Program-made: the position numbers and the translations under genes
In this document: positions 8,918-11,550 of the stretch, piece after piece
Numbering within the stretch: position 1 is the first letter of the stretch
Layout of the letters: every line of letters starts with the position of its first letter
The notes under the pieces: model-generated
Database searches by the model: none
Told to the model about the DNA's origin: nothing
What the model saw: only the letters and a program-made list of their open reading frames with translations
DNA from: an uncultured Chloroflexia bacterium
Lineage (GTDB): Bacteria; Chloroflexota; Dehalococcoidia; Dehalococcoidales; RBG-16-60-22
NCBI GenBank assembly: GCA_963739515.1
Contig: CAVUAO010000002.1
Location: forward strand, 51,263-115,262
Direction of reading: 5' to 3'
DNA length: 64,000 nt

Positions 8918-9679
8918 CTACAGTTTAAGGGCTTTTCTTTCTTGGGCGGTTAGACGCTGTTTATAGTCGGCCAGTTTCTTTTTGCTTTTGCCGGTGGCCG
9001 TTACCCTGTCGTCTTTGACCTCGACGTAGCCCATCAGTTCCAGTTCCCCGACCAGTGACGCAATGATGTTCTGGCCCAGTACCGGATAAATTTTATTAAT
9101 TTCATCCTGGGAAAATTCGTTTAATATTTTCTTCATGGCGATGCCCGGTTTTTCCCGGACCTTGTTCAGTATGGACATCGCCCGGCGGTAGTAGGGGAGG
9201 CTATCGCCCCGGTCGGCCAGGTCGAAGGCCTCCACTTTAAACCGGACCAGGGTATGTTTATCGCCGCAGACCAGCGATAGCTCTCTTTTCTCGGTGCCCT
9301 TCCCGATGACGTATTTTCCGCCCGGGGGATTATCGAATAGTGTCTCGTCGGGGATGAATTTATAGCCCTCCTCCGGTCTTTCCGGAGTTGGTCGGAATCC
9401 CACCCCGTCGTATTTTTTATAGGCTGGGTCGGCCACGCTTAAGGGTGAATGCCAGAAGGGGAAATAGCTCCCGGGGTCTTCCCCTTCTCGGTGCCGCCCG
9501 CCGGACGCCAGCAGGTCTTTGAAGGCTTTGCCGAGGACCGGCGCCATCGATGGGCATACCCGGCCGGTGATGGTCTCGCCGTCGTAGGTTATTTCCTCGC
9601 CGATTTTATAGCGGAAATGGCAGGGGTATTTCTTTTCGTCCCGCTCAAACCCCATCACCGTGGCTTTGACTTTGAACAT
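8918..9679 (-). CDS. Hypothetical protein: TIGR04076-like N-terminus plus possible C-terminal winged helix
   Basis: N-terminal PCHFRYKIGEE...RVCP resembles 5309..5563; RBS AAGGAG. Confidence 0.75.
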   Translation of the reverse strand: MFKVKATVMGFERDEKKYPCHFRYKIGEEITYDGETITGRVCPSMAPVLGKAFKDLLASGGRHREGEDPGSYFPFWHSPLSVADPAYKKYDGVGFRPTPERPEEGYKFIPDETLFDNPPGGKYVIGKGTEKRELSLVCGDKHTLVRFKVEAFDLADRGDSLPYYRRAMSILNKVREKPGIAMKKILNEFSQDEINKIYPVLGQNIIASLVGELELMGYVEVKDDRVTATGKSKKKLADYKQRLTAQERKALKL

Positions 9680-9707: not shown

Positions 9708-10361
9708 TTAAGCCAGCGCGTCCTTCGCCAGCTGATTGAGCCGCCGGTAGCTGGCGGCCGGGTCCGGCTGTAAAAAGATGGCGCTGCCGACGTATATCAC
9801 ATCGACGCCCGTCCTGGCGATTTGCGCGATGTTGTTTTCTTTAATGCCCCCGTCAATGCCTGTCGCTATTTTCGGATAGGCTTTACGGAACTCGACTATT
9901 TTCTCCAGGACCTCAGGGATGAACTGGGCGCCGTAAAAGCCGGGATTGACCGAGAGGAAGAGCACGTTGTCCAGCTTGGCGACGAGTTTTTTAATTGCCC
10001 TTATGGGTGTTTCCGGGTTAACGGCCAGGCCGGCCTTCATGTTGAGCTTTTTAATATTAAGGATAATTTTCTCCGGCATGTCGGTAGCTTCGTAGTGGAA
10101 GACGATTCCCCGCGCCCCCGCCCCCCGGAAATCTTCCAGGCAGTCCTCCGGGTGCATCACCATGAGATGCGCCTCCCACTTTAGCCTGGTTTTCAGTCCG
10201 GCGATATCCCCGCAGGTTACGCTCCGCGATGGCACGAATTTCCCATCCATGATATCCAGCTGGACGTAGTCGGTAAAGGTTTCGGCTTGTTTTACCAGTT
10301 TTTCCAGCACCCTGGGGTCATCGGTAAGAATCGCCGGTACTACGCGGACGCTCTGGCTCAT
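9708..10361 (-). CDS. rpe: Ribulose-phosphate 3-epimerase
   Basis: LDIMDGKFV, AHLMV, SVNPGFYG, IDGGI, VGSAIF. Confidence 0.95.
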   Translation of the reverse strand: MSQSVRVVPAILTDDPRVLEKLVKQAETFTDYVQLDIMDGKFVPSRSVTCGDIAGLKTRLKWEAHLMVMHPEDCLEDFRGAGARGIVFHYEATDMPEKIILNIKKLNMKAGLAVNPETPIRAIKKLVAKLDNVLFLSVNPGFYGAQFIPEVLEKIVEFRKAYPKIATGIDGGIKENNIAQIARTGVDVIYVGSAIFLQPDPAASYRRLNQLAKDALA

Positions 10362-10415
10362 GCCGCCTCCTTGAACTCTGCCGTAGATATTGAAATCAAG
10401 GTCGCCGTCGCCGAT

Positions 10416-10445
10416 ATTTTAAGTTTGCGCCCGTCGGGCTGTCAA
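10416..10445 (-). promoter_or_regulatory. Sigma70-type promoter for rpe
   Basis: TTGACA-18 nt-TAAAAT on the minus strand, immediately after the upstream terminator. Confidence 0.6.
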
Positions 10446-10448
10446 GCC

Positions 10449-10486
10449 AAAAAAAGTGGAGGCCGCTTTTTCTCGCGACCTCCACT
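10449..10486 (-). terminator. Rho-independent terminator of the putative ncRNA
   Basis: GTGGAGGTCGC-GAGAAAAA-GCGGCCTCCAC followed by TTTTTTT. Confidence 0.85.
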
Positions 10487-10711
10487 CACAAGACTGACGG
10501 GATACGAACCCAACTCACTTTCGGTGATCACTACCGTTCCGGGCATCCTTCCTTTGGAAGGACCGACTTCCGGATTTTATCTACGAGCCGGGTCCGCTTT
10601 CTGCTCGCCCCACTCAAGGCAGGGCGTCACAAATCCACCTGCCATACTCCGAACAACTCGTGAAGCTTCATTGGACACCTCCCGAAGCATATTCAGGTGT
10701 GTTAAGAGCTT
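10449..10711 (-). ncRNA. Putative stand-alone structured ncRNA (~260 nt), family not identified
   Basis: Bounded by a promoter and a terminator. A long-range closing stem (TTCACGAGTTG / CAGTCTTGTGAG) encloses hairpins GGCAGG/CCTGCC, CGAGC/GCTCG, TCCTTCC-AAA-GGAAGGA and TCAC-CGAAA-GTGA. Confidence 0.7.
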
Positions 10712-10717
10712 CGTTTG

Positions 10718-10747
10718 ATTGTATCCACAATCTTTTAAAATTGTCAA
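10718..10747 (-). promoter_or_regulatory. Sigma70-type promoter driving the putative ncRNA
   Basis: TTGACA (10747-10742), 18-nt spacer, TACAAT (10723-10718). Confidence 0.75.
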
Positions 10748-10752
10748 GCCGG

Positions 10753-11550
10753 TTACATCACATTTCCGCCCGAGACCTGGATCACCTGACCGGTGATGTA
10801 ATTGGTAACGTCAGATGCCATGAGGACGGTAATATTGGCGATATCTGTGGGGGTGCCCATCCTGCCGAGCGGGAAAGCGGCCAGCATTGCCTCCCGCATC
10901 TTCTTATATTGGTCTGGAGGGGGAGGGGGTGCGCCTTCCCTCAGAGCCGCCCCGAAATTGGTCGGCGCCGGGCCCGGGGCGATGCAGTTGCAGCGTATGC
11001 CGTTCTTGCCTTCCGCGTAAGCCAGTTGCTTGGTGAAGAGGTCGATCGCGTACTTGGAAATGGCGTAAACCGCCACGCCAAAAGAATACTGGCGGGTACT
11101 GCCCGAACCTATATTCACGATGGCGCCATGCTTCTGCTTTCTCATGTGGGGAAGGACCGCCCGGGTGATATACATGGTGCCGAAAAGGTTGAGGTCCATC
11201 TGCCTGGACCAGGTTTCGTATTTCTGCTCGTCCAGGGGGACATAGTCCTTGTGCAGGATGGCCCCGGCAACGTTGCAGAGGATATCGATTTTGCTGTACT
11301 CATTAATGGCTTGCTGGACCATGGCGTCGACTTCGGCTTTTTTGGTGATATCCGCCGGGATGGCGATGGATTTTTTACCAGTTTTCTTGATGGCTTCGGC
11401 CGTTTTCTGGGCGTCTTCCAGGTTGATATCGGTAACGGCGACCGCTTCACAACCTTCTTTGGCGAGGAGCAGCGCTATTTCGTGGCCAAAGCCTATCTGG
11501 CTGCCGGCGCCCGTTACCAGGGCGACTTTACCTTTAAACCCGAGGTCCAT
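10753..11550 (-). CDS. SDR family oxidoreductase
   Basis: TGAGSQIGFG, NVAG, YAISK. Confidence 0.95.
   Translation of the reverse strand: MDLGFKGKVALVTGAGSQIGFGHEIALLLAKEGCEAVAVTDINLEDAQKTAEAIKKTGKKSIAIPADITKKAEVDAMVQQAINEYSKIDILCNVAGAILHKDYVPLDEQKYETWSRQMDLNLFGTMYITRAVLPHMRKQKHGAIVNIGSGSTRQYSFGVAVYAISKYAIDLFTKQLAYAEGKNGIRCNCIAPGPAPTNFGAALREGAPPPPPDQYKKMREAMLAAFPLGRMGTPTDIANITVLMASDVTNYITGQVIQVSGGNVM

Follow-up and report, generated by a model that had tools for sequence, protein, structure and literature searches.

The DNA analysed here is a window of 64,000 nucleotides (nt) from contig CAVUAO010000002.1 (positions 51,263 to 115,262) of an uncultured bacterium of the Dehalococcoidales in the phylum Chloroflexota. 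The element in question is a gene for a small RNA that lies between a short-chain dehydrogenase gene and rpe. All coordinates are those of the window, and all features of the element are on its minus strand. The unit, at 10747-10449, is self-contained and consists of a promoter, a transcript of ~265 nt and a terminator. From its 5' end the transcript carries a hairpin, a strong Shine-Dalgarno (SD) sequence, an open reading frame (ORF) of 14 codons, a GC-rich hairpin, a three-way junction and the terminator. The locus is a genuine stand-alone gene whose product is a small structured RNA, and comparison of its homologues suggests that this arrangement is a ribosome-pausing device of an undescribed kind.

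Upstream of the transcript is a sigma-70-type promoter, TTGACA-18-TACAAT (10718-10747), which agrees with the consensus at 11 of 12 positions; the region contains four promoter-like sites against 0.6 expected. Of 30 homologous loci, 28 have a TTGAC box at a distance of 76-81 nt upstream from the start codon. The predicted transcript (10449-10712), with its ends placed according to the promoter and the terminator, starts ~7 nt past the -10 box and ends at the T-run. The intrinsic terminator (10449-10487) has a stem of 13 base pairs (bp; 10487-10454, eight G-C pairs) that includes a conserved GGAGG/CCUCC and is followed by seven T residues, and its hairpin is present in all 30 loci. Directly 3' of the terminator, outside the RNA and delimiting it, a separate near-consensus promoter, TTGACA-18-TAAAAT (10416-10445), precedes and serves rpe (9708-10361, Pfam PF00834). 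The gene upstream of the RNA (10753-11550) encodes a short-chain dehydrogenase. A preliminary description, made from the letters of this stretch, had proposed the same stand-alone unit between the dehydrogenase gene and rpe, with the promoter, the strong hairpin followed by T7 and the separate promoter of rpe; all of these were located, and the gene assignments agree. Behind rpe is a gene for a 253-residue protein (8918-9679, minus strand) that belongs to no Pfam family and recurs behind rpe in some relatives.

A conserved micro-ORF

The micro-ORF (10627-10671) consists of 14 codons and a TGA stop, MKLHELFGVWQVDL, with the core GVWQVD at 10650-10633. It is preceded by the SD sequence GGAGG (10678-10682), which lies within GGGAGGUG and is present in 30 of 30 loci. 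Each of these 30 BLAST-found loci has GGAGG(T/C)G, a gap of 3-5 nt, an ATG or GTG codon and an ORF that starts M-[K/R]-L-H; the ORF is 14 codons long in 22 of them. In 111 further loci, where the SD and the start lay outside the search pattern, an SD is found in 110 and a start codon in all 111 (ATG 92, GTG 18, TTG 1). The preliminary description had called the element a non-coding RNA and had missed both the SD and the ORF, and this label has to be given up for a transcript whose ORF is under clear peptide-level selection.

The pattern of substitution is that of a coding sequence. Entropy for the three codon positions is 0.40, 0.26 and 0.73, with the third position the most variable. Pairwise codon differences in frame are synonymous in 1300 cases and non-synonymous in 1162 (1300/2462 synonymous), compared with 218:2067 (218/2285) and 189:1883 (189/2072) in the two other frames. 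Replacements are conservative, with W changing to F or R, D to E and V to I. For the first Val of the motif, the 149 unique copies use GTA 43, GTT 39, GTG 36 and GTC 27 times, and the Gln codon is CAG in 113 copies and CAA in 36. The three-base periodicity, the interchange of ATG, GTG and TTG, the conserved SD and the conservative replacements together argue for translation.

Conservation is unevenly spread along the peptide. In distant copies found with the covariance model, the N-terminal part differs in sequence and ranges from 13 to >22 residues, while the C-terminal part consists of an aromatic or aliphatic residue followed by G-[V/I/R/C]-[W/F/R]-Q-[V/I]-[D/E]-x-stop. A regular expression for this C-terminal motif matches at 22 of the 28 loci from the class and at 10 of the 11 from the phylum, and the eleventh (L201) shows the motif in its matched sequence. 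The stop follows exactly one codon past the Asp in 104 of the 149 unique copies and directly past it in one; the stop codons are TGA (71), TAA (23) and TAG (11). Near the start of the ORF, all 30 loci, which are from the order, have CTT as codon 3 even though Leu has six codons, which points to a constraint by RNA pairing (the helix P1 described below) and not by the peptide. On this comparative evidence the ORF is under clear peptide-level selection, concentrated in the last seven residues. Selection, read in the same way, is on the C-terminal residues and on their fixed distance to the next hairpin, and the N-terminus is not so constrained.

The stop codon overlaps a start codon (TGATG, TAATG, ATGA or GTGA) in 69 of 103 copies, in the window at 10627-10631. 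A second ORF coupled at the stop (MPC… through the hairpin P3) was considered and rejected, because it is not universal and its peptide is dictated by the hairpin sequence. Recoding of UGA as selenocysteine ahead of the hairpin was rejected because TAA and TAG are also used, and a programmed frameshift because no slippery site is present and the codon ahead of the stop varies. A hammerhead-like UGAUG…GAAA was likewise set aside: the letters coincide with the stop codon and are variable, and Rfam gives no match. None of six proteins from longer variants of the ORF matched a family in NCBIfam or Pfam at E up to 10.

Structure of the RNA and known families

The 272-nt sequence folds with a minimum free energy of -111.6 kcal/mol, compared with -84.9 +/- 5.2 kcal/mol for 200 dinucleotide shuffles (z = -5.1), and none of the 200 shuffles is as stable. 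Covariation was assessed on two alignments. Alignment A1 holds 30 sequences with a hand-curated structure of 61 pairs; alignment A2 holds 102 model-aligned matches and 58 pairs, and is biased towards the model structure because it was fitted to the covariance model. In A1, 89.0% of cells are paired, compared with 37.6-46.8% after a shift of the partners by 1-3 columns, and both sides change in 34 of 61 pairs (shuffle mean 22.9). The corresponding values for A2 are 89.7% against 34.7-48.2%, with both-side changes in 48 of 58 pairs. The covariation score is reached by none of 500 shuffles in either alignment. The highly structured transcript of the preliminary description is borne out, and covariation lends its structure strong support.

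The 5' part of the RNA folds around the initiation region. The 5' arm of P1, GAAGCU (10707-10712), pairs with codons 2-3 (AGCUUC, 10667-10662), with 94.7-95.6% of cells paired and U:A, U:G and C:G at the innermost pair; this is the outer hairpin stem GAAGCT/AGCTTC already proposed, conserved at 94.7% of cells paired. Inside it, the anti-SD-like 5' arm of P2, ACACCU (10695-10700), pairs with the SD. Support for P2 is weak, as 81-87% of cells are paired and covariation is slight.

P3 (10606-10626) is a GC-rich hairpin, CGCCCUGCC...UGGGGCG, that begins 1 nt past the stop codon. In P3, 94.7% of cells are paired and both sides change in six of eight pairs (A2). Of the 110 copies in which its 6-bp arm is perfect, 90 have the start of this arm 6-7 nt past the Asp codon, and this spacing is kept even in copies that have no stop there. 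The Trp-Gln codons (GGCAGG, 10636-10644) repeat the sequence of the P3 3' arm and could pair with its 5' arm CCUGCC (10618-10623). As an alternative helix this pairing was rejected: 92.8% of cells are paired, with no both-side changes and values equal to those of shuffles. Copies with CAA or an altered P3 break the pairing. It is retained as an idea only, which might explain the near-invariant sequence of P3.

The three-way junction domain (10504-10597) is closed by P4 (10597-10585 with 10516-10504), which encloses P5 (10574-10538) and P6 (10536-10522). P4 has 13 pairs, 91.1% of its cells are paired and 10 pairs show both-side changes; P5 and P6 also covary, and P6 is a conserved GGUGAUCACC-like hairpin. 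The preliminary description had placed a domain of ~180 nt with at least four hairpins here. Its long-range closing stem holds, and the domain is smaller than proposed, at ~94 nt (10597-10504) with two hairpins. In other classes the region that follows P3 differs in sequence and is again a multi-hairpin region that ends in a terminator.

A single-stranded linker (10488-10503), …CAGUCUUGUG…, joins the junction to the terminator. It is conserved only within the family (A1), and an all-against-all covariation scan found no pairing partner for it. The same scan recovered the listed helices and nothing else that was convincing. All 11 pairs of the terminator stem show both-side changes, with 97.9% of cells paired. 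The outer half of this stem keeps GGAGG in the 5' arm and CCUCC in the 3' arm (for example, G:C 95 versus C:G 1; A2 columns 383-387/417-421), unlike the inner half, which flips freely. The SD-like and anti-SD-like sequence of the outer terminator is thus constrained beyond pairing, and it is not kept in all other classes.

The pseudoknots that had been suggested from distal complementarities are not supported by comparison. CGCCC/GGGCG is an ordinary hairpin. GGATTT/AAATCC and GGACC/GGTCC are paired in 57.7% and 72.7% of cells, respectively, and neither gains in pair types over shuffles. The T-loop-like sequence near the 3' end corresponds to the 3' strand of P4, shows no conservation as a T-loop and is silent in ARAGORN.

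The element matches no described RNA family. At the gathering score, Rfam 15 finds three tRNAs in the whole window and nothing at the locus. With E up to 10, the only result in 10380-10800 is sR44, at 11 bits against a threshold of 45 and hence noise, and 20 divergent homologues have no match at E up to 0.1. The scan that the preliminary description had recommended thus leaves both the locus and its divergent homologues without a family, 6S RNA included. The claim that the element is not signal recognition particle (SRP) RNA, RNase P RNA or transfer-messenger RNA (tmRNA) stands as well, as none of the three matches the locus and all are found elsewhere in the genome: SRP RNA on contig 5 (71.8 bits with the small and 206.7 bits with the large model; RF00169 and RF01854 tested), RNase P RNA on contig 3 (RF00010, 308.5 bits) and tmRNA on contig 3 (RF00023, 157.1 bits). 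ARAGORN found no tRNA-like domain in 10300-10900. A riboswitch is not indicated: the structured domain lies after the ORF and before the terminator, there is no class-level association with a gene, and Rfam has no riboswitch match in the window, at the locus or in the 20 divergent homologues.

The model of 6S RNA (RF00013) has no match at the locus (E up to 10) or in the element's own genome (E up to 1). It finds no 6S RNA in 61 Dehalococcoidales genomes, closed genomes, carriers and non-carriers included, but detects 6S RNA in just 5 of 14 control genomes, so its absence from the order is uninformative. Within the Dehalococcoidales, 6S RNA is either too divergent for RF00013 or missing. The fold of the element is not the rod of 6S RNA, as the 5' end pairs with codons 2-3, a three-way junction is present and the terminator is separate.

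Distribution, gene context and expression

The element is single-copy in its own genome, in which BLAST of the 272 nt gives one match. BLAST matches occur in 35 of the 61 relatives; among these are 30 of the family's 36 genomes. The covariance model finds the element in 39 of 151 genomes of a sample of the class (Dehalococcoidia) and in 18 of 151 genomes of a sample of the phylum, its own genome being counted in both (17 further genomes in the latter). Two families of the phylum sample stand out (f87, 4 of 6 genomes; f107, 5 of 6); their genomes are larger, and they may include cultured strains. In the closed genomes of family f10 the model finds the element in none of five. A few genomes have two copies on different contigs (G176 and G180 in the class sample and G254 in the phylum sample). 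A degenerate pattern for the ORF core matches at least 118 stretches in the genomes of named species; among the 80 matches listed, 79 are from Dehalococcoidaceae, Dehalococcoidales, Dehalococcoidia or Chloroflexi/Chloroflexota. The only other match among these 80, in Lutimaribacter marinistellae (L088), was rejected because no terminator lies at the expected distance, and it is probably due to chance. By these model and pattern searches, the element is conserved across Chloroflexota.

The neighbourhood of the gene changes with distance. Among the 30 loci from the order, 22-25 have rpe downstream in the same orientation (25 in one count and 22 in another), and 12 have a full promoter between the terminator and rpe. 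A convergent gene that is absent from the window separates the RNA from rpe in 15 of the 30 loci. It lies on the opposite strand directly after the terminator (L003, L005, L008-L011, L013, L015-L017, L019, L022, L024, L026 and L030) and encodes a small protein of ~95 residues, which has a hydrophobic segment at its N-terminus and is conserved in its C-terminal half (…IPDIEKIY…AESKIYD-DIAE-Y…). This gene and the RNA may share the terminator. At class level, the neighbours in 28 loci are unrelated, the next gene is often convergent and rpe is next in none. The linkage to rpe is therefore best seen as inherited gene order, and there is no conserved cis target. These observations uphold the earlier view that the RNA is not a leader of rpe, and they answer the question whether homologues serve as the 5' untranslated region of one class of genes, since no consistent downstream gene is found at class level. 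In three distant loci (L192, L194 and L195) the next same-strand gene, which is not rpe, has a similar N-terminal motif (…NLWLA…).

Small shares of the stretch (0.05-0.07 of words) occur in five metatranscriptomes. Contigs from four studies (a wetland, two soils and a sediment) cover 10448-10709. Contig depth is zero over 10710-10739 and the promoter is not covered, although the flanks of relatives would not align there in any case. The contigs from these RNA libraries are short (~110-250 nt); adapter sequence terminates a few of them near 10699-10703. The gene is unannotated and is probably abundant in Dehalococcoidia.

Interpretation and relation to known systems

The reading that we prefer, tentatively and at a probability of about 45%, is that the element is an mRNA-like regulatory RNA in which a nascent peptide and a hairpin would jointly pause the ribosome. 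Conservation of the C-terminus (GVWQVD) together with a variable N-terminus is the pattern expected of an arrest peptide. The conserved C-terminus, the free N-terminus and the tolerance of C-terminal extensions at a kept spacing point to a peptide with a role in cis within the ribosome and not to a free product; the ORF would be translated, and its nascent C-terminal part would act within the ribosome that makes it. The geometry of the ribosome is such that, with the Asp codon in the P site, the base of P3 lies at the mRNA entry site and the stop is one codon away. At this point of translation the entry channel would meet the base of P3, and the stop would be reached one codon later. Peptide and hairpin may in this way slow elongation or termination, and a dwelling ribosome would keep P3 open at the end of the ORF. 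The dwell time would be set by some condition and would in turn determine how the 3' domain folds, how stable it is or whether it is available. This domain would be the output, presumably in trans because no cis target gene is conserved.

A more far-reaching version, which we consider doubtful, makes the element a phylum-wide, free-standing translational sensor RNA. The micro-ORF would encode an arrest peptide tied to no downstream gene, and the RNA's 3' domain would read the occupancy of the ORF end by a paused ribosome and then act in trans or change in stability. If this were so, the element would be the first riboregulator with an arrest peptide to stand alone, and it might serve Chloroflexota as a housekeeping monitor of their capacity for translation or termination.

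Several observations weigh against ribosome pausing. The codon-15 stop is lacking in 44 of 149 copies, which extend by 4 to ~25 codons, so strict arrest at termination is not the universal mode. All three stop codons are used, so there is no dependence on one release factor. Known arrest peptides control a gene that lies downstream of them, and the element has no such conserved gene. Strong masking of the SD by the 5' hairpin is not supported, as the SD has a pairing probability of 0.61 compared with 0.66 in upstream-shuffled controls (0.54 compared with 0.47 for the start codon). The motif counts are inflated, because many loci were found with a pattern that fixes the motif; the wobble freedom, the start codons, the SD and the loci found by BLAST or with the model are independent of that pattern. 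The metatranscriptome contigs derive from relatives at 80% likeness or more, and they bear on presence in RNA libraries and not on strand, ends or level.

The alternative that survives best is an ordinary small-protein gene, in which a released 14-residue peptide is the product, as a regulator or ligand, and the structure tunes stability and translation of the mRNA. We regard it as rather unlikely, although it agrees with the clear peptide-level selection, with a gene that stands alone with no conserved neighbour and with the strong promoter and SD. It also has a precedent in peTrpL, a leader peptide of 14 residues to which the available part of the source assigns a function of its own (10.1101/606483). 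The distribution of constraint is harder to reconcile with a free peptide. Only the last seven residues are conserved, while the N-terminal part drifts in length and sequence, and the 4 to ~25 residues added at the C-terminus in the 44 extended copies are dictated by the hairpin. The fixed distance from motif to hairpin and ~170 nt of covarying structure past the stop, kept across the order and replaced in other classes by a structured domain about as large, would likewise need an explanation, and the peptide matches no protein family.

A lower probability still is given to a dual-function base-pairing small RNA, whose 3' part would regulate mRNAs in trans while the ORF has a separate role, as in SgrS/SgrT or rnTrpL/peTrpL. 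Dual-function RNAs are an established kind, as far as the accessible part of a recent account goes (PMC12612679). The comparative evidence is consistent with an independent transcript that carries a translated small ORF, and a terminator hairpin with a U-tail, directly preceded by the single-stranded linker, would suit a base-pairing RNA. The linker is conserved in the family but not in other families of the order, and the sequence of the 3' domain changes between classes while the ORF and P3 stay.

A cis-acting leader or attenuator, in which the position of the ribosome on the ORF controls terminator read-through into rpe or the next gene, is very improbable. The short ORF, the hairpins and the terminator do resemble the layout of a leader peptide; all 30 loci have an SD, an ORF and a terminator, and rpe often lies downstream. 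This reading is largely refuted by context, namely by the promoter before rpe, the convergent gene and the class-level loci (0 of 28 with rpe next). The terminator is also long (13 bp), and no conserved antiterminator pairing is seen among the covarying pairs, for which invariant columns are uninformative.

Slightly less credible again is a purely non-coding RNA with an incidental ORF, such as the divergent 6S RNA that the preliminary description had named as its main alternative. A strong promoter and a single-copy gene would agree with it, and the niche of 6S RNA is formally unfilled in the 61 genomes. The signs of translation set out above speak against it, as do the lack of pairing between the 5' and 3' ends, the branched interior with no central bubble and the silence of RF00013 and of all Rfam at E up to 10; 6S RNA is, moreover, undetected in carriers and non-carriers alike. 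A type I toxin mRNA, to which a short ORF in a highly structured, stand-alone transcript and a 5' end paired into the initiation region would be suited, can be dismissed almost entirely, because the 14 residues include several charged ones (K, H, E and D) and form no membrane helix, neither a promoter nor an RNA in antisense came up as conserved in a search that was not exhaustive, and the gene occurs as a single copy with a local gene order conserved within the order.

The element is of interest on several grounds. To our knowledge, regulatory nascent peptides and dual-function RNAs have always been gene leaders or species-restricted oddities. The element joins a micro-ORF with a phylum-wide conserved peptide to a covarying RNA domain and has no cis target. 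If the peptide and the hairpin pause ribosomes, GVWQVD would be a new arrest motif for the biology of the ribosome tunnel, and the layout, in which arrest is read out by the RNA itself, would be a new one in regulation. Should the 14-mer instead act as a free effector, it would rank with the smallest bacterial gene products of broad conservation. Dehalococcoidia are environmentally important and mostly uncultured, and we know of almost no RNA biology in this class. A more general lesson is that candidates for novel non-coding RNAs should be checked for three-base periodicity.

The RNA gene is apparently undescribed. Literature searches by motif strings and by topic found no description of it, with supplementary lists of unnamed candidates lying outside their coverage. 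For Dehalococcoides, the available part of a survey (NAR 2024) reports only an unrelated rdhA motif.

Among stand-alone RNAs, the element resembles 6S RNA (RF00013) in that it looks abundant, is single-copy, has a strong promoter and is of broadly similar size. It differs in having no 5'/3' closing stem or central bubble, in its branched fold and translated ORF, and in the lack of a match to the model. With tmRNA it shares a structured RNA that contains a short reading frame and occurs once per genome. Unlike tmRNA, it lacks a tRNA-like domain and its frame has an SD and a start codon, and the genuine tmRNA of the genome lies elsewhere.

The closer parallels are with leader peptides. In TnaC, a key Trp and a key Asp lie in the conserved C-terminal part. 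TnaC and SpeFL, as treated in the accessible part of PMC11890864, are like the element in their conserved C-terminal part, their variable N-terminus and their action at or near the stop; those peptides control downstream operons and respond to known metabolites, whereas the element stands alone. The trpL gene of Sinorhizobium, from which rnTrpL and the 14-residue peTrpL arise, likewise yields one small transcript, which carries both an ORF of 14 codons and a terminator, and both the RNA and the peptide are assigned functions in trans in the part of the source available (10.1101/606483). It is a classical Trp attenuator upstream of trp genes, whereas the element has no such operon, a single conserved Trp codon in place of tandem ones and a much larger structured 3' domain.

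The nearest likeness is to PepNL of Escherichia coli, a 14-codon ORF that, according to the available part of its description, blocks RF2 at UGA with the chain-carrying tRNA-Asp in the P site, has predicted stem-loops around its stop, and lies upstream of pepN and regulates it (PMC11890864). Shared with the element are the 14 codons, a function near the peptidyl-transferase centre (predicted for the element), an Asp and a hydrophobic residue at the C-terminal end, stem-loops that flank the stop, and UGA, the most common stop in the element. The element differs in that it has no conserved downstream gene, its Asp is penultimate and not last, a third of its copies have no stop at this position, and a large RNA domain follows. 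No sequence homology between the two has been shown, and arrest is demonstrated for PepNL and inferred for the element. Set beside these systems, the element most probably varies the theme of arrest peptides or of dual-function RNAs in a new way.

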